Origin: an uncultured bacterium
GTDB taxonomy: Bacteria; Verrucomicrobiota; Kiritimatiellia; RFP12; UBA1067
Reading direction: 5' to 3'
NCBI GenBank assembly: GCA_900547945.1
Contig: URIT01000002.1
Span: 28,503 to 92,502 of the forward strand
DNA: 64,000 nucleotides
How positions within the stretch are numbered: position 1 is the stretch's first letter; every line of letters starts with the position of its first letter. The notes beneath the pieces were generated by a model, which was not told the DNA's origin, searched no databases, and saw only the letters and a program-made list of their open reading frames with translations. Below, piece by piece: positions 51,937 through 64,000 of the stretch. A program made the position numbers and the translations under genes.

Positions 51937-52027
51937 TTGCGAAAATAACTCCCCTTAGGTTAACCGTCACACAGACGGTTAACCCATTAAGTCCAATAAA
52001 CACCCTTGAGAAAGGAATTTCAACAGA

Positions 52028-52444
52028 ATGAAGATTTCAGTCATCTTGTCGGTAATTGCGGTTGCCGCGACTCTGTTTTCCGGCTGCGGCAACGACACAA
52101 CCGCCAACAAGACCAAGACCAACGACACAACTGCCAGCGCACCCAAATCCGCAGACGAGTTGTTCGATGCCAAATACCTGCAGAACGTAAGAACTGTTAC
52201 AAAAGTCCCGTCGCTTGAAATGGAAATTTATCGGAAATCGGCGAGGAAAGTACTTGCGCAACTGGAATCCGGCGGCGCGGTAGAGGCCGCAAAGGCACAA
52301 GGGATCTCGCAGGATGACTACAAGAAAATGGCGGTTGAAGGTCTCATCAAGGACTTGCAAGGAAACATGCGTAAGATGGTACGCGAGGTGTCTGGTGAGA
52401 CACAGCAAAAGGTTGCAATGCAGCAAATGATCATGTGGTTGTAA
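52028..52444 (+). CDS. Hypothetical lipoprotein (138 aa)
   Basis: Lipobox LFSGC. No family recognised. Confidence 0.6.
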   Translation: MKISVILSVIAVAATLFSGCGNDTTANKTKTNDTTASAPKSADELFDAKYLQNVRTVTKVPSLEMEIYRKSARKVLAQLESGGAVEAAKAQGISQDDYKKMAVEGLIKDLQGNMRKMVREVSGETQQKVAMQQMIMWL

Positions 52445-52596
52445 TCGACACATACTTGCGTAGTCGAATCGAACATCATGTGTCTGCGATACAGACGCAT
52501 GATGTTCGATTCGATCCCGGTTTTTCGCTGACCGACGAGGTCGGACAGATGTTGCATAATATGGGAAATAATGTAATACGAAGGATGGATGATAAA

Positions 52597-53184
52597 ATGG
52601 GAAAACGAACGTGGATATTGCGCGTTACGGCCTCCGCAGGGGTGTGCCTTCTGCTTCTTGCCGGTTGCACAACACCAAACAGGGACTCCGGCACGGAGGA
52701 TCGCGACCGCTACATCGACTTCTGCCGCGAGCTGGCGACGTCGCCTGTGCCGGAACGGGAAGACCCCGACGACTTCATGTCGAAGCCGGACTGGATGGTG
52801 CATCCGTGTTCGACGACCGACCAAGAGTTCAAGAAGGAATACAACGTGGTGTATGCCGACCGGCAGTACCTCAGCTTCCGTTGTTCGGAATACGCCTATA
52901 CGGGCGGGGCACACGGCAATACGCAGATCACGGTCGGGACAATCGACCGCAAGACGGGCAAGATCCTGACGCTTGCCGATGTTCCGGCATTTGCGGATCG
53001 TCATGCGCTGAAGAGGCGGCTACAGGATGACGTTGTCATGAAAATCGGCAAGGACGCCTTGCAGGGTGATGTCGGACCGCACGACAACTTCTACCTGTCC
53101 AAGGACGGCTGGCATTTCGTCTTCAACGCATACGAAGTCGCCTGCTACGCCGTCGGCGACGTTGAGGTGGTCATTCCGAAGTAA
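52597..53184 (+). CDS. DUF3298 (RsiV-ectodomain-like) lipoprotein
   Basis: Lipobox LLAGC. SFRCSEYAYTGGAHGNTQITVGTIDRKTGK and ...FYLSKDGWHFVFNAYEVACYAVG match the DUF3298 signature. Start at MGKRTW (52597); 52585 is also possible. Confidence 0.8.
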   Translation: MGKRTWILRVTASAGVCLLLLAGCTTPNRDSGTEDRDRYIDFCRELATSPVPEREDPDDFMSKPDWMVHPCSTTDQEFKKEYNVVYADRQYLSFRCSEYAYTGGAHGNTQITVGTIDRKTGKILTLADVPAFADRHALKRRLQDDVVMKIGKDALQGDVGPHDNFYLSKDGWHFVFNAYEVACYAVGDVEVVIPK

Positions 53185-53254
53185 AGCGAAACTGGAGGCA
53201 CGCAACCGTCCGTGCCCCGTTCCGCTTTCAACATCAATCACAAGCAACATAGAT

Positions 53255-53490
53255 GATTTATTACGTGCTGAAATCTCAGGCAGAGGGGAGGAGGGAACTC
53301 GGCACAGGGCGTCCGAACGGGCCCGGCACGGGACGTCCGAGCGGGGGAGCGTTCCGCGTCCTTCGCCGTGCCACCCCACAGCGTCCCGTGCCGAGCCGTG
53401 TCGCCGAGCCACATCGCCGCGCACGCATCCCCGCACCCCGCCACGAGGCGCCGAGCCGCCGCAAGATGAGATTTCACCGCGTAATGAATC
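53255..53490. mobile_element. MITE-like element: 24-bp imperfect terminal inverted repeats enclosing host-type G+C-rich REP sequence
   Basis: GATTTATTACGTGCTGAAATCTCA (53255-53278) versus TGAGATTTCACCGCGTAATGAATC (53467-53490): 21 of 24 positions complementary. One arm recurs at 29477-29500. The interior shares CGTCCGAACGGGCC and CCCCACAGCG with 14317-14340. Confidence 0.5.
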
Positions 53491-54331
53491 TGGGAACCCG
53501 TCGCGCCGCGCGGCGCGACGGGTTCGATACGTGCGGCCTTCTCCGGGTCTGTCTCGGCGGCCCGGGCGCGGCGAGAAGCGGACACGTTCCCGGTTCTTGC
53601 CCATCGTTTGCCTGTCAAGACCTACATCCCCTTGCGAAGCGCGGGCGGCGGGCGCCCCCTTTTTTTCGAAAAATAGGGATAAGGATGTCATTTCGCGCGA
53701 CGTCCATGTTAGCATACTAGACGCCTTTCTCTTCCCTTCCGCGCATTTATCCTAACTGTCGCAGTTAGGATAATAGATTCGATCGGGAATGACGTTTTAC
53801 GCACGTCATAAAATTCGGCCTTGCACACGGCTCTCTGCGATAAAGTCCTACAACATACGTTTTCCGGGGCGTCGGATTTCACGAAACCCCTGTAAAACAA
53901 GGGCGAAGCGTATCTTGTAGGTGCTACAACATACTTGAGAGAGGATTTCGGGTGTCGCGGAGAATCGAGGAGAGATTTTGTATCTCTCCCGCCGAAGATG
54001 GATGCGGTGGAGAACCACGGATAAGCGAAAAGAAAACCAAACCTTCGTATTACACGGTAATAAGGAGAGAAGAGTCTCTTAGTACCGTCTGGAAATGGTC
54101 GGAGCGGCGACATCTGAACCGTAGAGATTCTGCTACGCTTGAATGTCCTTGCGATACCGCCCATAAACCGAATAGAAGTGAATTATATCATATCGTGCTT
54201 GCCGGGTCAAAACGCACTTGAGACGCAACACTCGGCTGGGTGCACCGAGAGATTTATGCTGACACCCCACATTTCCCGCTTGATTTTCGCATACGCATAT
54301 ACGAGGGAAGAACCACTCGTTCTCCATTCCC

Positions 54332-55023
54332 GTGGACAAGGTCTCCGAGTTCAGGGCCGCCGTCGCCGCGAAGGACTGCGAGTCCGGGGAATCCGAGCGC
54401 AACGCCGGGAACCATCCGAAGCGCATCGTGACGCTCTTCGGGGAGCTCCCGCCCATCAGGCGCACCTACTGGTACGACGCGGACGAACGCAGGGGGCACT
54501 ACCCCTTCGACGACAGGCTCGGGCTCGTCGGAAGGTACACGCCAGCCGCCTGCGCCGACATGATCCGCAGCGCGGTCGACCGCCCCTTCGCCGACGCCGC
54601 GAGGGACTTCTCAGCGAAGCACGCGTTCCGCGTCTCCGCCGACACCGTGCGGGAGATCGTCGGGCTGCACTACGATGCCATCCGCGACTTCCCGAAGGAC
54701 GAAAGCCACGCGAAGGAGGATGCCGGGGGAGCGGCCCCGCTCGTCTGCGTCATGGCCAACGGAACGGGCATCCCGCTGCGGAAGGAATGCCTCAAGGGCG
54801 CCAAGGGCAAGGACGGGCGCGCGAAGACGCGCGAGGTCAAGGCCGCCGCGATCTTCAGGGCGTCGACGACGTCGGACAGCGCTTCAAGCAGTCCGGCAAG
54901 ATCTGGTCGCTGAAAGGAGCGAAGGCGCTGCTGCCGCTGCGCACCCTCCACAAGTCGAACCGCCTCGAGGAGTTCTTCGCCTACCTCGTCAGAGACCTAA
55001 GGCATGTCGACTGCGCGGCATGA
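54332..55023 (+). pseudogene. ISKra4-like transposase remnant (5'-truncated, large internal deletion with frame change)
   Basis: ...RIVTLFGELPPIRRTYWYDADERRGHYPFDDRLGL...VCVMANGTGIPLRKECLKGAKGKDGRAKTREVKAAAIF in one frame, then RFKQSGKIWSLKGAKALLPLRTLHKSNRLEEFF in another. The junction is near 54856-54875. Confidence 0.6.
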
Positions 55024-55377
55024 GCCTTGCGTTCTCTGCGGCTAAACCCTCTGACTCTGCATAAATATCTCGTTGCACTCGCTGTTCGATTCTAAGCGTG
55101 TGGCTCAAAATGAAGCGTGAGCGGGACGGATGCGAAAGCGTGGCCTACGATGAATGGGACGCGCCATGCGCGGGACCGTTGTGGAAGTCTGCACGAGGAG
55201 GAAAGTAATAAAGAAACATTGCCCGCCAACCTTGATGCATCGCCAAGAATTATGAGATAATATGCCTCAAAGATTCGCGTATCGACCCGACCAAGGGCGG
55301 ATATTGGGAGGTAGGCGAATGACAGGCGATGAGAAAAGCACGAGGGCAAGAGGTTTGGTATAGTACATCCCACCAGA

Positions 55378-56514
55378 ATGAACGATAAAACGACAGATTG
55401 CTCGCAACTTGAGCGCGGTGTCATAGACCCTGATTTCACACGGGATATCCTTGAATCGGAGATCCCGAGGGATGTTTTGCAGGTTTTGCTTGCGGATCGG
55501 ACGACCGGCAAGAACATCATGTGGATGACCGACGGATACGCACATCTGAAATCCGTGTTCGATGTCAAGATGGGAATCCATGACGAAATCAATGCAGATG
55601 TGATTTCCCGTCCAGGAAACAAGATTGTCCGTCCTCGTGTTGACAAGAGCAAAGAAGAACAACGCAAACGTGTCGTTGGCAAGGCGGAGGTGTTCACGCC
55701 GTCATGGATCTGCAATGCCATGAACAACCTCATGGATGCCGCATGGTTCGAGCGAAAGAAATCCCCGTTCACGATTGAGGGCAACAAGTCGTGGCGGGCA
55801 ACAAAGAAGCTCGTGACATTCCCCAAGAAGCTCAAGAAAACCTGGCTTGATTTCGTCACCGAAGTGCGCCTTGAGATCACATGTGGCGAGGCTCCGTTTC
55901 TTGCAAGTCGATACGATACCACAACAGGCGAGGTGATTCCGATTCCCGAACGCATCGGCATACTTGACCGCAAGCTGCGCATTGTGACGGAGAACGCAGG
56001 CGCGCAACCTGACGAATGGCTGAAATATGCAAAAATGGCCCTCAAGGCCATTCTGGGCTTTGAGTGGCAGGGCGACAACCTGCTCATCGCACGCGAGAAT
56101 GTTCTTTGGACCATATTGGAGTATTACAAGTATTATTGTTCGCCAACGCCAATAAGCCACGATGACCTTCTGGAGCTTGCAAACATCGTGAGTTGGAACA
56201 TCTGGCAGATGGACGGGTTGAAGTTCGTTGTCCCGCTAAGTTGCCATGATGAACCCATCGTCCCCAAGACGCCTAAAGCCGTGCAGCCGGATTTGTTTGC
56301 CACCGAAGAAAAAGGATTGTCGGAACAAACGCTACCGTTGACGAAGCCCTGTCCTGGCTGCGCGAAGAAACACATCCTTGACGGCGCGGAATTTCACAAC
56401 GGCACCTATTGCAAGATCATGGATTGGGGAACCGGCGAGCCGCATGAATTCGTCTGGCATTATCTGCATCGGGATCGGGAATGCGTGGAAAAGGAAAGAA
56501 GGAAACCGCAATGA
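55378..56514 (+). CDS. N6-adenine-methyltransferase-fold protein lacking the (D/N)PP(Y/F/W) catalytic motif; C-terminal CxxC region
   Basis: Motif-X-like GKAEVFTPSWICNAMNNLMD, motif-I-like RLEITCGEAPFL, motif-III-like ALKAILGFEWQGDNLLIAREN, but SWNIWQ where NPPY is expected. ATGA overlap with the next gene. Confidence 0.6.
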   Translation: MNDKTTDCSQLERGVIDPDFTRDILESEIPRDVLQVLLADRTTGKNIMWMTDGYAHLKSVFDVKMGIHDEINADVISRPGNKIVRPRVDKSKEEQRKRVVGKAEVFTPSWICNAMNNLMDAAWFERKKSPFTIEGNKSWRATKKLVTFPKKLKKTWLDFVTEVRLEITCGEAPFLASRYDTTTGEVIPIPERIGILDRKLRIVTENAGAQPDEWLKYAKMALKAILGFEWQGDNLLIARENVLWTILEYYKYYCSPTPISHDDLLELANIVSWNIWQMDGLKFVVPLSCHDEPIVPKTPKAVQPDLFATEEKGLSEQTLPLTKPCPGCAKKHILDGAEFHNGTYCKIMDWGTGEPHEFVWHYLHRDRECVEKERRKPQ

Positions 56515-59500
56515 CAGACACGGCCATTCTGGAAGAGTTGATCGTCGGCCGAGTCGAGCCGCGCATCTATGCCTTTACCACCAACACCGTGCCCAACTAC
56601 TTGAAGGTCGGCGACACCTACCGTCCCGTGGATGCCAGGTTGGACGAGTGGCGTGAGCATTTTCCTCATTTGAAGCGAGAGTTCGACGATTCCGCCAAGA
56701 TCGGCGATGTCTTCTTCAGGGATTATTCCGTTCATGTCTATTTGGAGGAAACCGCGAAGCGTCCGCGACTTGCCAAGGGGAGATTCCCTGATGTCTATTA
56801 TTCAAATGAGTTCTTTGAAGGAGCCACCAAGGGTGATGTCATGGCGGCAATTGGTGACATACGCCATGATTTCGAAACAAAGGGACAGCGGTATCAGTTC
56901 TACAGCGTGGCGGAAGGACTCCCCACAGGCGTGAAATTCCCTTCAACGGGCATGTGGACGCTGCGCCCCAACCAAGACGCCGCCGTAAGGAGATTTCAGG
57001 CGGCTATTGCGGCCGGCCGGAAAAACCTGCTCATGTACGCCGTCATGCGCTTCGGCAAGTCGTTTACGTCCATGTGCTGCGCCAAGACAATGAACGACGG
57101 CAACGGGGCGAACATCGTTCTTGTCTTGTCCGCGAAGGCAGATGTCTGCGGCGAATGGAAGAAGACCGTCGAGAGTGCCGAAAACTTCCGAAACGACTAT
57201 GAATTCCTTTCCGGTAAAGACCTCAAGGCAAACGACAGAATCGTTTCAGATTTGCGGCGCAAGGGAAAAAAGGTCGTCATATTCCTCACGCTTCAGGATT
57301 TGCAGACCACCACGATCAAGAAGAGGCACCGGGATCTGTTCAACAGGAAGATCGACCTCTTGATCGTAGATGAGACCCATTACGGCGCGCGTGCCGGCAA
57401 ATACGGAGAGATCCTTCGCAAGACGAAGGGCTACATGGCGGACAAGTCGTCCGGCAAGGATGGCGAGGACAGCAAGAACGCCGAAAACATGGACGCGGCC
57501 ATCAAGGCGTTCAAGGTGAACGTGACGCTTCACCTTTCGGGAACGCCTTACCGAATCCTGATGGGCAGTGAGTTTGACAAGAAGGACATCATCGCGTTCT
57601 GTCCGTTCACCGACATTGCCAACGAACAGAAAAAGTGGAACGACGAACACATACTTGACGATCAATACCGCGAATGGGACAATCCGTATTTCGGCTTCCC
57701 GGAGATGATCCGCTTTGCCTTCCATCCAAGCAGATCCGCCCGCATGCGGCTTGAGGCATTGCGCAAGGGCGGGGCGACATACGCGTTCTCGGCGTTCTTC
57801 GCGCCCGAAAGCATCGTGCCGCAAGCGGACGGCAGCCACAGGAGGTTCAAGTTCGAAAAGGAGATACGTGAACTCTTCCAGGTGATTGACGGCAGCAAGG
57901 AAGACGACGAGCTGCTGGGATTCCTTGACTACGACAAGGTCAAGAACGGCATGATGTGCCGTCACCTGGTCTGCGTGCTCCCCTATTGCGCCTCGTGCGA
58001 CGCGCTTGCCGCGCTGATTGCCCGCGAGAGCAAGAATGGAGCCTTCAAGAACCTTGCCGAGTATCAGATCATCAACATCGCCGGACACGACATGCCGCCC
58101 GAGTACGCGAATGTCGAGGAAGTCAAGAAGACGATTCGCGAATGCGAGCAGGAGAGCAAGAAGACCCTAACGCTCACCGTGAACCGCATGTTGACCGGCT
58201 CAACCGTCCCCGAATGGGACACGATGCTCTACTTCAAGGACACGTCTTCTCCGCAGGAATACGATCAGGCGATTTTCCGTCTGCAGAACCAGTTTGTGAC
58301 GGAGATGAAAACGGCCCTTCCCAACGGTCGCGAAGACGTGATCAAGTTCAACAAGAAACCCCAGACGATTCTTGTGGATTTCGACCCGGCGCGTCTGTTT
58401 GAGATGCAGGAGGAGAAGTCCAAGATATACAATGCCAACGAGAACAAGGCCGGCAACACGAAACTGAAAGCGCGCATTTCCGCCGAACTGGCCGTTTCGC
58501 CTATCGTGTGCGTCACCGCCGGGAAGATTCGCCGCGTCGATGCTGAGGACGTAATGAAGGCCGTTTCGGACTATTCGCGCAATCGCGGTGTTACGGACGA
58601 AGCGGCGAAAATGCCAGTCGATGTTGCGGCGGCGGCGAAATCCAAGGAATTGCTTGCGGCCATCATGAAGGAGAGCCCTCTTGGCAGCAAGGACGGCCTT
58701 ACACTCGATCCGCACAAGGGTGAGGGCGAAGACTTGGAGGATATGGCTGCAACCATAAAGAAGGCAGCGAACGGTGCGGCGCCAACTGGAAACGCCACGC
58801 CGACAACTTCAGACGAGAAGAAGGCGTTGGCAGAATTCGAGGACAAGTTCCGGGCGTATTATGCACGACTGCTCTTCTTCGCATTTCTCACGAAAAGCAA
58901 GGTCTGTTCGGTCGAGGACATCATTGCCTGCATGGACGAAGGCGACAATGCTCGGATAGCAACGAATCTTGAGATCACAAAGCCTGCTCTCAAGGCCATC
59001 CAGAAACATTTCAACAAGTTCATCCTCTCCGAATGGGACTACAAGATCGACAACCTGAACACGCTCTCGCGTGACGAATCGCTCGCGCCGCTGGAGCGCG
59101 CGCAGACGGCCATTCGCAAGTTCGACCGCCTTGGCGTTTCCGAGATCATGACGCCGGAGAAGATCGCGGACGACATGGTCGCGCTCTTCCCTGCCGCCGA
59201 ACTGAAGCGCATCGCGCAAAGCGGCGAGAAGATTCTCGACATCGCCAGCAAGGCGGGAGAATTCGCGATTGCGCTCTACAAGCGCTACAAGAAGATCGAC
59301 CCGAATATCGACGTCAGCAATCTGATCCTTTCAATCTCGACGTCGTCCCATGCCTACGAATTCACGCGCAACGTGTACGCGGCGCTTGGCCTGAACCTTG
59401 ACAACATCGCCGAGAAATTCACCTCCTATGATTTGTTGAAGGTCAAGACCGCAGACGGTGAGATCGACTACGAACGAATCAAACTCCTTCTCACCCAGAA

Positions 59501-60560
59501 AAAACCTTTCAGGAAAATCACCATGAACGACAAAGTATCTGCCAGAAGTAAACACTTCACAATCGCTGGGGCAGTGGGCAATCCGCCGTATCAGGAGATT
59601 AAAGGAGAGGAGAAACTAGGTTTTGCCTCTGCAATTTATCCATACTTTATGAATGCCGCTTTTGATTTGTCGGAAGGGCATACTTCAATGATTGTTCCAA
59701 GTCGATGGATTATGAAGACCGGGCAGGGCATCAATGAGGCTTGGGCAGATGCTCTAATTCGGTCGAACCGCTTTCTATCGGTACACGATTTCCATGACGC
59801 GAAGAGTTGTTTTCCCGGAGTTGAGATCAAAGGCGGCGTGATGTATTTTGATTACAAGAAAGACTATGAGGGTAAATGTAGTTATGTTAATAACGTAGGA
59901 GAGCGTTCGACTGAGACTTTTGACTTTATTGACGCGATGGGATGTGGGGTAGTAATTCGAGATGAAATAGCGAGGTCAATATTGGGTAAAGTAGTATCGT
60001 TGGAAGGTGAATACTTTAGGGACGAATCATTTGCGAAATACGTTGGACCCACTCATTTGTTTGACAAGGGTGGGCAACTTGGCTCTAGTTGGTCAGGTTT
60101 TCAGAAGAAAAAGGATTCACAACATAGCATTAAGTATTATCTCAACAAGCGGGTAGTGGAATGTGGCTTCGCTTGGATTAAGCCGACAGATGTGCCAAAA
60201 GGCCATGATTCTATTCCAGTACATAAGGTATACGTGCCTGAAGCCTATGGTGCAGGAGAGGGATTCCCGCATCAAATCCTCGGTGTCCCATTTTATGGCG
60301 AACCAAATAGTGTCTGCTCTCAGACGTATCTTTGTATAGGTTATGATCCATCGGTTAGAAAGTTTTCTAAGGAAGAGTGTAAAAATATTGTATCTTACAT
60401 CAAGACGAGATTTCTTCGTTATCTTGTTTCCTTTTCGTTATCTTGTTTCCTTGAAGAAGAACACCCAACATTCTTTTGCTGCGGTATATCAATTCGTCCC
60501 CTTGCAAGACTTCACATCTGCATCCGATATCGACTGGTCGCGTCCAGTCCCCGAAATTGA
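56511..60560 (+). CDS. T5orf172 (GIY-YIG-like) / SF2 helicase / Eco57I-type N6-adenine methyltransferase fusion, C-terminus frameshifted by a 19-bp duplication
   Basis: N-terminus PRIYAFTTNTVPNYLKVGDTYRPVDARLDEW...NEFFEG (T5orf172 pattern). Helicase motifs MRFGKSFT, LLIVDETHYG, HLSGTPY, LTGSTVPEWDT, QAIFRLQN. MTase motifs GVSEIMTPEKIADDMV, ILDIASKAGEF, GNPPYQ (59577-59594). The last 36 codons are out-of-frame junk. Confidence 0.8.
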   Translation: MTDTAILEELIVGRVEPRIYAFTTNTVPNYLKVGDTYRPVDARLDEWREHFPHLKREFDDSAKIGDVFFRDYSVHVYLEETAKRPRLAKGRFPDVYYSNEFFEGATKGDVMAAIGDIRHDFETKGQRYQFYSVAEGLPTGVKFPSTGMWTLRPNQDAAVRRFQAAIAAGRKNLLMYAVMRFGKSFTSMCCAKTMNDGNGANIVLVLSAKADVCGEWKKTVESAENFRNDYEFLSGKDLKANDRIVSDLRRKGKKVVIFLTLQDLQTTTIKKRHRDLFNRKIDLLIVDETHYGARAGKYGEILRKTKGYMADKSSGKDGEDSKNAENMDAAIKAFKVNVTLHLSGTPYRILMGSEFDKKDIIAFCPFTDIANEQKKWNDEHILDDQYREWDNPYFGFPEMIRFAFHPSRSARMRLEALRKGGATYAFSAFFAPESIVPQADGSHRRFKFEKEIRELFQVIDGSKEDDELLGFLDYDKVKNGMMCRHLVCVLPYCASCDALAALIARESKNGAFKNLAEYQIINIAGHDMPPEYANVEEVKKTIRECEQESKKTLTLTVNRMLTGSTVPEWDTMLYFKDTSSPQEYDQAIFRLQNQFVTEMKTALPNGREDVIKFNKKPQTILVDFDPARLFEMQEEKSKIYNANENKAGNTKLKARISAELAVSPIVCVTAGKIRRVDAEDVMKAVSDYSRNRGVTDEAAKMPVDVAAAAKSKELLAAIMKESPLGSKDGLTLDPHKGEGEDLEDMAATIKKAANGAAPTGNATPTTSDEKKALAEFEDKFRAYYARLLFFAFLTKSKVCSVEDIIACMDEGDNARIATNLEITKPALKAIQKHFNKFILSEWDYKIDNLNTLSRDESLAPLERAQTAIRKFDRLGVSEIMTPEKIADDMVALFPAAELKRIAQSGEKILDIASKAGEFAIALYKRYKKIDPNIDVSNLILSISTSSHAYEFTRNVYAALGLNLDNIAEKFTSYDLLKVKTADGEIDYERIKLLLTQKKPFRKITMNDKVSARSKHFTIAGAVGNPPYQEIKGEEKLGFASAIYPYFMNAAFDLSEGHTSMIVPSRWIMKTGQGINEAWADALIRSNRFLSVHDFHDAKSCFPGVEIKGGVMYFDYKKDYEGKCSYVNNVGERSTETFDFIDAMGCGVVIRDEIARSILGKVVSLEGEYFRDESFAKYVGPTHLFDKGGQLGSSWSGFQKKKDSQHSIKYYLNKRVVECGFAWIKPTDVPKGHDSIPVHKVYVPEAYGAGEGFPHQILGVPFYGEPNSVCSQTYLCIGYDPSVRKFSKEECKNIVSYIKTRFLRYLVSFSLSCFLEEEHPTFFCCGISIRPLARLHICIRYRLVASSPRN
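60415..60452. repeat. Perfect 19-bp tandem duplication TTCGTTATCTTGTTTCCTT x2 inside the helicase-methyltransferase gene
   Basis: 60415-60433 and 60434-60452 are identical. Removing one copy joins frame 0 to the frame of ORF 60343..60639. Confidence 0.95.
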
Positions 60561-60639
60561 AGCACAGTTGTACGCGAAATACGGCATTACCACGTCCGAG
60601 CAGAAGTTCATCGAATCCCTCATCAAGCCGATGGAGTGA
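60453..60639 (+). pseudogene. Displaced authentic C-terminal tail of the helicase-methyltransferase (now in +1 frame)
   Basis: LKKNTQHSFAAVYQFVPLQDFTSASDIDWSRPVPEIEAQLYAKYGITTSEQKFIESLIKPME resembles the conserved tail of Eco57I-type methylase-domain proteins. Confidence 0.8.
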
Positions 60640-60650
60640 GGAGCCTTCAA

Positions 60651-61754
60651 ATGATTATTGGTGAAGCACGAGAGAAGAAGCCGAAAAATAGTACCGTTGT
60701 CACATTTCTCATCGGAAATGGTTTCGATATTGGGCTTGGTTTAAAAACCCGATATGCCGACTTTGTAGCTACATATTTAAAGTGCCCCTCGAAAACAGAG
60801 GTTATAGTCAAACTGAAAAAGGCGATCAATCAGAATATCGACCTTTGGGGAGATGCGGAATTGGCATTCGGGAAACTGCCGTTTTCAACTTTTGGCAAAG
60901 AATCTTATCCTGTTGTTAAAGAATGTGTAACGGATTTTAGTGACACACTTTCTGTATATCTTCAAAATGAGGAACGGCGCTTTCAAGTTCCTGCTGACGA
61001 GCTTAAGGTCGCTTTCGGTACTTTATTGTGTTCGTATTATCAAAGGCTTGGGGCGTACCCTAAACGTAATGAGTTAAAGCGCTTGAAGCGATTCAATCGG
61101 CTGAAGGTTAATGTGATTAACTTTAATTACACAGAGACAATCGACAAGATGTTGCCTCCATCTGGGACTATGACTTTGCCTGGGTGGGGAAAGGTAGATG
61201 TCCAGATCAATGAGGTGTGTCATATTCATGGGGCACTTTCTGTTGGGACATCCAGATCATTTGGGGTAAATATGTTGTCGCAAATAGAGGACGCTAAACT
61301 TATTCCCGAAGCAAGAATGTTGCTTGTTAAACCAGATGTTGATCGTATGGCGCGTTGGGGGTTAGAGCCAATGGCTAAAGAGATGATAGACGAGAGCGAC
61401 ACTGTTGTCCTGTTTGGTTTGTCATTAGGAAGTACTGACCAACTTTGGTGGAACTACTTGCTGGATTATATCCAATACAAGACGGAGCATAGACTTTGTT
61501 TAATGCAATATGTAAAGGAGGCACGTGGCACACGATTGCCTGGCGAAGAAGGATTGTGGGCGCAAAAAGAATGCCGAAAGTTCTATAACGCAGTAGACAC
61601 AGAGAAGATGAAATATGGCAACACTACCGACTTGGATCGACGAATCGATGTTTCTATACGTGGCCCACAGCTTGATCCCGATGGGCATGAAACATTTTGC
61701 GATCCATTTCAACTGTTTTGGTTTGGCAAGAAATTGGTTGTTGATGGATCGTAA
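60651..61754 (+). CDS. AbiH-like abortive-infection protein
   Basis: VTFLIGNGFDIGLGLKTRYADF, VINFNYTETI, VCHIHGAL, VVLFGLSLGSTDQLWWNYL follow the AbiH (PF14253) signature order. GAGGAG lies 7 nt upstream of the ATG. Confidence 0.85.
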   Translation: MIIGEAREKKPKNSTVVTFLIGNGFDIGLGLKTRYADFVATYLKCPSKTEVIVKLKKAINQNIDLWGDAELAFGKLPFSTFGKESYPVVKECVTDFSDTLSVYLQNEERRFQVPADELKVAFGTLLCSYYQRLGAYPKRNELKRLKRFNRLKVNVINFNYTETIDKMLPPSGTMTLPGWGKVDVQINEVCHIHGALSVGTSRSFGVNMLSQIEDAKLIPEARMLLVKPDVDRMARWGLEPMAKEMIDESDTVVLFGLSLGSTDQLWWNYLLDYIQYKTEHRLCLMQYVKEARGTRLPGEEGLWAQKECRKFYNAVDTEKMKYGNTTDLDRRIDVSIRGPQLDPDGHETFCDPFQLFWFGKKLVVDGS

Positions 61755-61826
61755 CCATCGGTCTTTTAATAACCGAATAGAAATTAATCTAATTCATGAT
61801 TAGGACAACGCAGAAAGGAGCAAACA

Positions 61827-62006
61827 ATGGATAACTCAATAGTTAATGATGTAGTTAAGGCATTGATTTCATTTTTCCTTGGCGGAGGAGTGGGCTGCTT
61901 GATAGGTATCAAAATTGGTGTCAATAAGACAATTAAGCAACATCAAAAAAGTGGCGATCATTCAACCCTGGCGCAAATTGGAGTTGTTGAAAATGGGGAA
62001 CATTAA
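61827..62006 (+). CDS. 59-aa ORF with one TM helix; probably the detached N-terminus of the following gene
   Basis: AAAGGAG 6 nt upstream. MDNSIVNDVVKALISFFLGGGVGCLIGIKIGVNKTIKQHQKSGDHSTLAQIGVVENGEH. Below the 60-aa cutoff of the ORF track. Confidence 0.45.
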   Translation: MDNSIVNDVVKALISFFLGGGVGCLIGIKIGVNKTIKQHQKSGDHSTLAQIGVVENGEH

Positions 62007-63120
62007 GCAAGTTCAAAAAGCAGGAGATGGGTCTTCTGTTGCTCAAATTGGGATGATTAACAACTATGGTATTGATGAAAAGCGAGTCCGTGAAATATGC
62101 GACGAGAAGATCCAATATGCAATTCATGATCTAACATCAGAAGCCTGTACTAAAGCAACTCAAAAAGTTTATGATTTCATAACACTTCTTCTCGCGAAGA
62201 TTTCAGAGCGGAAGATGGATTTGTCCGCATTCGCGGAGCCAAGCTTTCAAAGAGAGTTGATAAAGGCACAGACATTTTCAGCAGTATCAGACCGCAAAAC
62301 GGATGTAGAAATGCTCTCGGAATTATTGTTAGCGCGAATGAATGGTAAGTTGAAGCGCAAGACCAAGACTGGTATTAGTCGTGCAATGGAGGTCGTTGCA
62401 GAACTTGACGATGATGAGCTACTTGGCCTTACAGTTGTTTTCTTAGTTCTATCAACATCTCCTACTGCCCAGCTAGGAGCCGAATCATGTTTGGGATTAG
62501 ATGCCCTAGAACGGGTTTTCTCTAAGTTTCCTCTTGATGAACTTCCAAATGTGACAGCGTGGATTGAAAATCTGAATATCTTAGATGCCGTCATAATAAG
62601 CCCATTTGGTGGCTTCTCTAAGTTCCATGATATTCTTGAGTCAAAAATGAGTGGTTATGTTTGCGTTGGAATAGGGAAAGATGCTCCAGAACTATTGAAA
62701 GCAAAGTCTTTGTTGCGAACAGCTTTGCTGTCGGATTCGTTTTTGTGTGAAAATGAGTTTCTTGAAGGGTATTATCGATTACCTGTTGTTAATATTTCAG
62801 ATGTTAGGACATTGTCTTTGCACAAAATGTTTCAGGATTCATCCACAGGAAAAATAATTAATATCCCAGTGCCCATGACGGAAGATGTTATTAGAACGTT
62901 GTCAGATATTTCCGCATTGTATAATAAGGATGCTAAATTGATGTCTGAAGTGAAACAAAAATTTGAAGCAAAGTTAAAGGCTTATCCTACATTGTATAAG
63001 GTGCAACAATGGTTTGATAATTTGAAGATGTCGTTTAATATTACAAAGGTAGGAAAGGCGCTGGCGTATGTAAACGGAAAACGATATGCACCAGAATTGC
63101 CAGAACTGTCGTTGGAGTAA
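61993..63120 (+). CDS. Hypothetical protein (375 aa from the internal ATG), family not recognised
   Basis: MGNIKQVQKAGDGSSVAQIGMINNYG... repeats the motif that ends the preceding small ORF. A+T-rich, coding-like. Confidence 0.6.
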   Translation: MGNIKQVQKAGDGSSVAQIGMINNYGIDEKRVREICDEKIQYAIHDLTSEACTKATQKVYDFITLLLAKISERKMDLSAFAEPSFQRELIKAQTFSAVSDRKTDVEMLSELLLARMNGKLKRKTKTGISRAMEVVAELDDDELLGLTVVFLVLSTSPTAQLGAESCLGLDALERVFSKFPLDELPNVTAWIENLNILDAVIISPFGGFSKFHDILESKMSGYVCVGIGKDAPELLKAKSLLRTALLSDSFLCENEFLEGYYRLPVVNISDVRTLSLHKMFQDSSTGKIINIPVPMTEDVIRTLSDISALYNKDAKLMSEVKQKFEAKLKAYPTLYKVQQWFDNLKMSFNITKVGKALAYVNGKRYAPELPELSLE

Positions 63121-63418
63121 GACGATTTGTTGGGTATGACATTCTAAATAAGACATTGATAATTGTAAGCGATGGGAGGCTCATTTCTGGTGTTTTGTGT
63201 ATAGGTGGCGTGCGAAGGCCCGGTGGGCACGTTGGCTTTGCAGAAGGTGGGGTGGGGGAGTCCGCTCTTCTTGCGCGAGGATGAGGCATGTCGAAAGGAA
63301 TGATAATGAATAAAGGCACACAGATGATAGAGTTCTGGCAGCTGTGGCGTGACGGTTGCTTGAAATAGATTTACAAAGCTCATGAATTCATGATCCGACT
63401 AACAGAGTGAGACGAGAA

Positions 63419-64000
63419 ATGAAAAGTCGTAAGGTGAACCCAGGTAACGAGAAGTCAATTCCCGGAATAGCAGATGAAATGGCACGCACGGCGGTCAAGT
63501 CCTTGTGCAAGGACGGGAAGCTGACGCCGCAGGGGCGGAGTCTTGCGAAGTTAATGGATCGGATAATGCCCGCTGAGAAGGTGGATGAGTGGGGCTGGAA
63601 TCTCTCGCGCAAGGAACGGGCGGCGATCAAGCGGCGGGCGGCGGAGAAAAGGGCGGCGGATGAGGCGCGGCGAGCCGAGGCGCGCGCCCGCGCAGCGTAC
63701 AGGCGGCGGCTCAAGGCGCTCGAGAATGATGGTGAAATCAATGGCCACATTCAGATGAAATGGGCGTTTATGGAGACTTTCAGGGAATTGAAGCGGCGTG
63801 GTTTTTCAATCCGGCGGATGAATGCGATGAGACGCGCCGTCGAGGCGCGGATTTGCGAGTGGGACGGGCTTTGCCATAGGGACTATGTGGAATATTTTGT
63901 TTACGACTATTACCGCGAATGCGGGAAGCTGTTTGTTGAACTGTTCCCCAAAGAAAAGAAGGCAAAGGCAAGAAGGATGTGGGCACACGCATTGGAACCA
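63419..64000 (+). CDS. Hypothetical protein, 5' part only (open to the right edge)
   Basis: Own translation from ATG 63419 has no stop for 194 codons: MKSRKVNPGNEKSIPGIADEMARTAVKSLCKDGKLTPQGRSLAKLMDRIM...RRAAEKRAADEARRAEARARAAYRRRLKALEN... Not in the track because it is unterminated. Confidence 0.5.
   Translation, partial: MKSRKVNPGNEKSIPGIADEMARTAVKSLCKDGKLTPQGRSLAKLMDRIMPAEKVDEWGWNLSRKERAAIKRRAAEKRAADEARRAEARARAAYRRRLKALENDGEINGHIQMKWAFMETFRELKRRGFSIRRMNAMRRAVEARICEWDGLCHRDYVEYFVYDYYRECGKLFVELFPKEKKAKARRMWAHALEP

Follow-up and report, generated by a model that had tools for sequence, protein, structure and literature searches.

Unrelated suicide or back-up genes are known from inside or beside the operons of bacterial restriction-modification (RM) systems, as exemplified by PrrC in the EcoprrI Type I locus. 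The first three domains of the Type ISP enzymes LlaBIII and LlaGI share an identity of more than 90%, while the recognition domain differs (PMC3553950). In Vibrio, deletion of dnmA or yeeB raises phage sensitivity (PMC9973331), and the abortive-infection protein AbiH is predicted to be Sir2-like, as summarized in a recent review (PMC13064643). Features of all these systems are met in the window considered here, the whole 64,000-nucleotide stretch of contig URIT01000002.1 from an uncultured bacterium of the Kiritimatiellia, in which five reading frames follow each other: gene 1, gene 2, an AbiH gene, the gene for a small membrane protein of 59 amino acids and a gene of the Vpar_1526/LPO_1073 family (Table 1). 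The region from 54.3 to 63.1 kb is very likely a low-GC, horizontally acquired defence island of three independent units, namely the RM system of gene 1 and gene 2, the enzyme of which is a pseudogene here, AbiH, and the pair of the 59-amino-acid membrane protein and Vpar_1526.

Foreign DNA of mixed origin is indicated by the composition, since the guanine-cytosine (GC) content amounts to 54% in gene 1 and most of gene 2, to 43% at the end of gene 2 and in AbiH, and to 39% in the last two open reading frames (ORFs), compared with 65% in the backbone of the window. The stop codon of gene 1 and the start codon of gene 2 overlap in ATGA (56511-56514), which suggests translational coupling; 11 nt separate the native stop of gene 2 from the ATG of AbiH and 72 nt separate AbiH from the 59-amino-acid ORF, which in turn overlaps the 375-amino-acid ORF, lying in the +1 frame relative to it, by 14 nt. 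A preliminary description of this DNA had already listed the co-directional frames with the ATGA overlap and the 11-nt and 72-nt gaps, and the coordinates confirm them. Its reading of the region as a defence locus combining an RM enzyme, AbiH and poorly understood genes is likewise supported by domain and PADLOC matches. It had counted two of the proteins as being of unknown family; their functions are indeed poorly understood, but gene 1 matches the PADLOC model PDLC03390 and the last protein falls into NF045477/PF28206. It could not name the arrangement as a whole; genes 1 and 2 match the PADLOC models MTase_II and REase_MTase_IIG, and AbiH is a catalogued single-gene system.

Judged by conservation of sequence and neighbourhood, genes 1 and 2 are one widespread two-gene RM module. 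A scan of one genome per species recovers at least 587 relatives of gene 1, and in the best 80 loci (L014-L093), which span Kiritimatiellia, Treponema, Bacteroidales, Clostridia, Bacilli, Flavobacterium and others, a gene 2 homologue stands directly after gene 1, within tens of nucleotides, in nearly all cases. The co-occurrence of the 378-amino-acid protein with homologues of the fusion of T5orf172, helicase and methyltransferase, proposed earlier as a check, is thus borne out. Among the 65 loci with enough downstream sequence, gene 2 is an intact ORF of 1126-1570 amino acids in 51.

The gene 1 product matches PDLC03390 (label MTase_II) over its full length (1.8e-100) and has no match in Pfam or NCBIfam. 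Its family comprises at least 8000 homologues, some of which are named 'restriction endonuclease subunit M', and the alignment displays strongly conserved EVFTPSW (motif X), LEITCGEAPF (motif I-like), GFEWQGDN..AREN and SWNIWQMDG motifs in addition to a conserved C-terminal cysteine/histidine cluster. Longer homologues of about 545 amino acids have no additional Pfam domain. The AlphaFold2 model of gene 1 reaches a predicted local distance difference test score (pLDDT) of 80.5.

Gene 2, once repaired by the removal of one copy of a 19-bp duplication, matches the PADLOC model PDLC03626 (REase_MTase_IIG) with 1219 bits from residue 5 to 1368 of 1369 (profile positions 10-1359). One polypeptide carries, in this order, a putative nuclease, a superfamily 2 (SF2) helicase, a gamma-class N6-adenine methylase and a C-terminal target-recognition domain (TRD), and literature searches retrieved no paper on this fused architecture. 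The N-terminal T5orf172 domain scores 23.1 bits versus a Pfam cut-off of 20 and is found beside the helicase in eight of ten divergent members of the gene 2 family, three of which exceed the cut-off. Motif conservation was measured across 53 homologues from many phyla: the helicase motifs, intact in gene 2, are the Walker A motif MRFGKS, the DETH box and SGTP, conserved at 90% or more, and GNPPYQ (residues 1023-1028), of which the NPPY of gene 2 is encoded at 59580-59591 (residue 1024), is kept in at least 90% of the members. The motif I-like ILDIASKAGEF for S-adenosylmethionine binding is conserved as well.

If the enzyme works as those of Type ISP and Type IIG do, its recognition domain would read an asymmetric site and the NPPY methylase would mark one strand of host DNA, while unmodified sites would license ATP-driven translocation with subsequent cleavage by the N-terminal nuclease. 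Gene 1 would be the obligatory companion of gene 2, most likely a methylase-like subunit of the accessory or second-strand kind. All enzymatic activities and any protective phenotype are what we infer, whereas the integrity of the genes, their families, the patterns of co-occurrence, the allele states and the breakpoints of recombination are shown by the sequences.

Close relatives of gene 2 are alike up to the catalytic motif and diverge thereafter, with a protein identity of 90-100% up to approximately residue 1030 and of approximately 20-50% directly after NPPY. At the nucleotide level the breakpoints lie at approximately 59593 and 60565 and coincide with the drop in GC content. The block in between, allele 'TRD-A', has no nucleotide match in the relatives L001-L007, despite flanks that are 95-99.8% identical. 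By its breakpoints, this allele pattern is a replacement of the recognition domain as between LlaBIII and LlaGI. It provides a clean natural example of such a replacement in an RM enzyme that contains a helicase, the breakpoint following closely on NPPY. In a word-index protein search, the proteins closest to the recognition block are stand-alone Eco57I-type methylases of approximately 520 amino acids with 57-58% identity; this search, which used the recognition domain in repaired form, gave 58% identity at most and missed identical full-length proteins present in the same collection, so that a lack of close matches in it does not mean that none exist. The idea that the TRD-A allele is unique was dropped, as identical intact proteins exist.

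The conserved 3' end of gene 2 marks another site of exchange. Its last approximately 75 nt recur as a direct repeat around inserted defence cassettes in the relatives L001 (15023-15093 and 20005-20079) and L008 (366-440 and 5557-5631); the cassettes are a Thoeris-like TIR set and IetAS, respectively, and both end with a gene for 205 amino acids and an ORF6N/PDC-S05 gene. These direct repeats suggest that recombination at the conserved 3' end of the methylase gene brings in the cassettes; this end might represent a recombination hotspot for the diversification of the island.

Members of the same species differ in what follows gene 2: AbiH alone (L002), AbiU/AIPR (L005), an unknown protein of 1075 amino acids (L094), the Thoeris-like TIR (ThsB-TIR) cassette with PDC-S05 and then AbiH (L001), or IetAS with PDC-S05 and then AbiH (L008). 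Across the gene 1 loci, genes of the GmrSD_N, DUF2971, JetA, PRTase-CE, TIR/SEFIR, AbiJ, Fic, HD and PIN types, and also housekeeping genes, occupy this position. The AbiH protein of the window matches Pfam PF14253 over residues 24-282 (3e-29, 103.3 bits, cut-off 30.9), the match to the PADLOC AbiH model is short and weak (2.2e-5), and the identical protein is encoded on many contigs. AbiH is predicted to be a stand-alone, Sir2-like abortive-infection gene here.

The third unit had been described as carrying a frameshift by an extra G in its last gene. This is not the case: homologues start at the equivalent of the ATG at 61993, the small ORF is itself conserved, and the GGGG run (61996-61999) and the layout of the 59-amino-acid and 375-amino-acid ORFs are unchanged in every near-identical contig (at least 10 independent ones). 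The 375-amino-acid protein scores 90.1 bits with NCBIfam NF045477 (cut-off 45), and Pfam PF28206 (Vpar_1526) is assigned to all its 92 homologues of 244-387 amino acids, of which the full-length ones measure 354-387 amino acids and begin at the methionine equivalent to that ATG. Its AlphaFold2 model is mostly helical (pLDDT 85.6) and finds no fold match in PDB or BFVD; literature searches gave no paper on the function of Vpar_1526.

The 59-amino-acid protein consists of an N-terminal transmembrane helix followed by the motif KQHQKSGDHSTLAQIG. In 80 metagenome loci of Vpar_1526 (L109-L188, 34-67% identity), tblastn detects homologues of the small ORF directly upstream in 34, and 34 of the 41 non-redundant loci with upstream room have a motif-bearing small ORF in the same relative frame. 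The small ORFs of these 34 non-redundant loci encode 54-106 amino acids with an N-terminal transmembrane helix and one or two copies of KQxQKAGDxSxQxQIG, which is also the conserved N-terminus of Vpar_1526 itself; they end 8-50 nt inside the Vpar_1526 ORF, which is always in the +1 frame, and the stop usually falls on the xxT-AAR (K) codon of the motif. As every Vpar_1526 homologue has its own ATG, preceded by a Shine-Dalgarno-like GGAG that the "QIG" codons of the small ORF supply, the arrangement speaks for two translationally coupled genes and against a frameshift, and the pair of the window is by this pattern probably coupled in the same way. A programmed +1 frameshift was considered for this unit and, given the retained start sites, is rated unlikely.

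The neighbours of Vpar_1526 in these loci are mostly RM components, with N6_Mtase counted nine times, HsdM_N six, Methylase_S five, HSDR_N four and C5 methylase four times, besides Eco57I, GmrSD and BsuBI/PstI genes. Several Vpar_1526 modules appear between Type I hsdS and hsdR, and in L012 and L013 the module is located at the end of a Mu-like prophage beside AbiE pairs. The Vpar_1526 family is better regarded as a module of two genes, one of them for a small membrane protein, that resides preferentially beside RM systems, and as a candidate defence module.

In the window, gene 2 bears two exact tandem copies of the 19-bp unit TTCGTTATCTTGTTTCCTT. As it stands, the gene encodes 1307 native residues followed by 42 missense residues and lacks the last 62 native ones; removal of one copy restores the protein of 1369 amino acids, essentially identical to the intact protein of L102 (one 50-residue window at 98%), so that the frameshifting duplication was correctly recognized beforehand. 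The same allele is present without the duplication in nine related contigs (L098-L100, L102, L103, L106-L108 and L194), which derive, like the other related contigs, from human gut metagenomes. In the eight contigs aligned by blastn (L098-L100, L102, L103, L106-L108) the duplication is missing as an exact 19-nt gap, and the intact 1369-amino-acid allele is encoded on L098, L102, L103 and L194. Loss of function is likely because the 62 lost residues include positions conserved across the 53 homologues, and the enzyme of the duplicated gene 2 has, on this basis, very probably lost methylation as well as restriction. If both activities go together, such a system would be lost without harm. The earlier proposal of a locus undergoing inactivation holds for gene 2; it does not hold for the last gene, which is intact and has no second frameshift.

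Elsewhere, of the 65 loci that extend far enough downstream, approximately 14 have the large RM gene interrupted, fragmented or parted from gene 1 by an inserted ORF (for example L017, L027, L039, L044 and L046). Decay of the gene 2 enzyme with gene 1 kept appears to be common.

The borders and signals of the island complete the picture. The contig L102, which shares the chromosomal context, covers positions 51979-64000 of the window with 99.3% identity and also carries the region of the insertion sequence (IS) stub at the left border. The stub, already noticed in the preliminary description, is an ISKra4-family fragment (NCBIfam NF033572, E 1.3e-11, 44 bits with a cut-off of 205, profile positions 54-218 of 422), to which Pfam UPF0236 also matches with 23.3 bits; plasmid tblastn gave no match for it. 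The promoter candidate agrees with the consensus at 9 of 12 positions, has a TG extension and adjoins a block common to all relatives that starts at 55264. The locus contains no tRNA or Rfam element, and comparison with PHROGs yielded unknown-function matches only.

Several further observations were made at the margins. The 18-nt near-repeat AACCGAATAGAA(G/A)T(G/T)AAT at 54166-54183 and 61771-61788 flanks the IS stub, gene 1, gene 2 and AbiH, and its positions coincide with homology breakpoints with respect to L002. The window appears circularly permuted relative to the L002 region downstream of AbiH, with window positions 53818-54192 matching L002 16847-17121. Upstream of the island, a near-perfect 23-nt inverted repeat (52464-52514, 96% complementary, 5-nt loop) sits at the start of an ORF with a DUF3298/PdaC domain. 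After Vpar_1526, a 205-amino-acid gene without family match extends from 63419 to 64000, past the end of the window, and occupies 11427-12044 in L102, with a 445-amino-acid relative of IS30-like transposases farther downstream; a 94% identical copy stands before ORF6N-AbiH in L001 and L008, and the gene recurs on both sides of cassettes.

Table 1. Features of the defence island and their positions in the window
Feature	Position	Strand	Remarks
ISKra4-family transposase fragment (IS stub)	54332-54913	+	Truncated; left island border
Promoter candidate upstream of gene 1	55232-55261	+	Sigma-70-like; weak evidence
Gene 1	55378-56514	+	378 amino acids, intact
Gene 2	56511-60639 (native frame)	+	Premature stop 60560; 1369 amino acids once repaired
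T5orf172 (GIY-YIG-like) domain, putative nuclease	56565-56834	+	Pfam PF10544, residues 19-108 of gene 2
SF2 helicase/ResIII ATPase core	56958-57551	+	Pfam ResIII 3.4e-13, residues 150-347 of gene 2
Eco57I-type N6-adenine methyltransferase core	59400-59813	+	Pfam PF07669 4.5e-12, residues 964-1101 of gene 2
Target-recognition domain block, allele 'TRD-A'	59594-60565	+	43% GC; swapped en bloc among strains
19-bp tandem duplication, 2 x TTCGTTATCTTGTTTCCTT	60415-60433 and 60434-60452	+	Exact; frameshifts gene 2
Conserved 3' end of gene 2, encoding ...EAQLYAKYGITTSEQKFIESLIKPME	60565-60639	+	C-terminal residues conserved family-wide
AbiH gene	60651-61754	+	367 amino acids from ATG, intact
Terminator-like stem-loop at AbiH end	61740-61762	+	Weak evidence; 8-pair stem, then T-rich tail
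Small membrane protein ORF	61827-62006	+	59 amino acids
Vpar_1526/LPO_1073-family ORF	61993-63120	+	375 amino acids, intact

The state of gene 2 might be explained otherwise than by pseudogenisation. Being one short event, absent from most related contigs, while the rest of the gene is perfectly conserved, the lesion could be an assembly or sequencing artefact that leaves gene 2 intact in the source organism; this is highly improbable, as an exact 19-bp tandem copy is atypical of homopolymer or assembly error and as L097, an independent Logan contig for which three samples are reported, matches the window at 100.000% over 5655 nt with the duplication included. With nine related contigs intact and L097 identical, the duplication is a real, derived lesion. 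The preliminary description also entertained phase variation, in which case the duplication, along with a G run, would be reversible ON/OFF switches exploited by the cell. Indeed, the one-copy and two-copy states both occur naturally and coexist in public metagenomes at an otherwise 99.6-100% identity, and tandem duplications can revert by slippage. However, the unit is not a simple-sequence repeat, is seen in one or two copies only and is the sole indel among these contigs, with the intact state dominating in nine contigs against L097, while the run of four G is invariant in all relatives and causes no frameshift at all. As no invertase or shufflon was found either, a switch of this kind seems very improbable.

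With gene 2 taken as a pseudogene, the independence of the three units has to be weighed against the possibility that all four or five genes constitute one integrated, layered system. In it AbiH, the Vpar_1526 pair or both would be back-up effectors that detect when the RM enzyme fails or is inhibited, in the manner of PrrC with EcoprrI. It would be in line with such a system that the block of gene 1, gene 2 and, 11 nt further, the identical AbiH recurs in at least three chromosomal contexts within the clade, that Vpar_1526 is often found beside RM genes in unrelated metagenome loci and that other Abi-type genes often follow gene 2 in relatives, a co-directional gene starting at most 25 nt downstream in 17 of 45 loci. 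Beyond the clade the association dissolves: neither AbiH nor Vpar_1526 is present within 10 kb in any of the 80 gene 1 loci of other species across phyla, the third gene differs almost every time and is sometimes a housekeeping gene, and 79 of the 80 Vpar_1526 loci have neither AbiH nor gene 1 nor gene 2, the sole exception being a fragment of the same strain. Even among close relatives, L002 is without Vpar_1526, L094 without AbiH, and in L008 other cassettes separate AbiH from gene 2; moreover, a terminator-like hairpin follows AbiH and the GC content differs between the parts. AbiH and the last gene thus occur apart from the RM pair, which database models assign to a known type, so that the single novel or variant multi-gene system suggested in the preliminary description does not stand, and an integrated system is quite improbable.

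The reading as three independent units with a dead RM enzyme nevertheless has to accommodate points that weigh against it. The recurrence of the identical AbiH after gene 2 means that local co-transfer is real, and a local functional link between AbiH and gene 2 is conceivable at best. Partial activity might also persist in the shortened product of gene 2. With respect to gene 1, the family alignment lacks the NPPY catalytic motif, and the top Foldseek matches of the model, although they are gamma-methyltransferase domains (PglX/BrxX, LlaGI, DrdV, LlaBIII and MmeI), are all sub-significant with E values of 0.2-2. Comparison of the gene 1 family with stand-alone Eco57I-type methylases by hhalign gives a probability of 5% with motif X alone aligned, and neither gene 1, gene 2 nor the gene 1 profile has a sequence match in PDB at E <= 1-10. 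Because NPPY is missing and the methylase likeness is at the level of motifs, the role of gene 1 is a guess. The preliminary description had called gene 1 inactive-MTase-like, which it may or may not be; its family is strongly conserved and is without NPPY.

A bolder combination, which we consider rather unlikely, takes genes 1 and 2 as a distinct ATP-dependent RM class and the small protein with Vpar_1526 as a new RM-associated abortive or back-up module, both of which could form a layered defence with AbiH in this clade. Such a class may be Type ISP-like, but with a T5orf172 nuclease and an obligatory methylase-like partner devoid of NPPY. The conserved +1 overlap, for its part, could give rise to a membrane-anchored Vpar_1526 fusion by frameshifting at the stop codon of the small ORF. 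The locus as such is ordinary, a defence island in which the RM system and the Abi gene are both of catalogued kinds and one gene is a pseudogene; intact and broken gene 2 alleles are both at hand for a methylome comparison.

Compared with known systems, each unit of the island has recognizable relatives. As in the case of PrrC and EcoprrI, Vpar_1526 keeps company with Type I genes, its neighbours being enriched for hsdM, hsdS and hsdR, but there is no sign here of physical or regulatory coupling. With lactococcal AbiH (PMC13064643), the AbiH of the window shares a Pfam domain match well over threshold, the organization as a single gene, the chromosomal location, the association with mobile elements and the predicted Sir2-like nature; it differs in its weak PADLOC match and in residing in a high-GC Gram-negative gut host. 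The DnmA-YeeB-YeeC system of Bacillus subtilis and Vibrio crassostreae, the B. subtilis copy of which is reported to be a non-functional relic, likewise combines an adenine methylase of the MmeI/Eco57I class, an SF2 helicase and a T5orf172 protein, but as three separate genes in another order and with no homologue of gene 1.

The RM pair itself stands between two described types. Type IIG enzymes accompanied by a separate methylase (Eco57I-like; 'RM type IIG' in PADLOC) resemble it in the bifunctional RM polypeptide with a Pfam Eco57I core and in a separately encoded partner labelled as methylase, with full-length PADLOC matches to PDLC03626 and PDLC03390. Unlike classical Type IIG enzymes, which are without a helicase, gene 2 has a helicase module that is complete and in which the ATPase motifs are intact, and the companion gene 1 is without the NPPY catalytic motif. 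From Type ISP the pair differs in the T5orf172 (GIY-YIG-like) nuclease at the N-terminus of gene 2, as opposed to an Mrr/PD-(D/E)xK nuclease, and in the adjoining partner gene 1 in essentially all 80 loci, as opposed to a single polypeptide; between gene 2 and the LlaGI or LlaBIII chains there is no sequence match at E <= 1. Nevertheless, the plan of gene 2 is that of LlaGI and LlaBIII, with nuclease, SF2 helicase-like motor, gamma-class N6-adenine methylase and C-terminal recognition domain in one polypeptide and with the helicase motifs GKS, DETH and SGTP intact between nuclease and methylase, and its alleles, like LlaBIII and LlaGI (PMC3553950), are alike except for the recognition domain.

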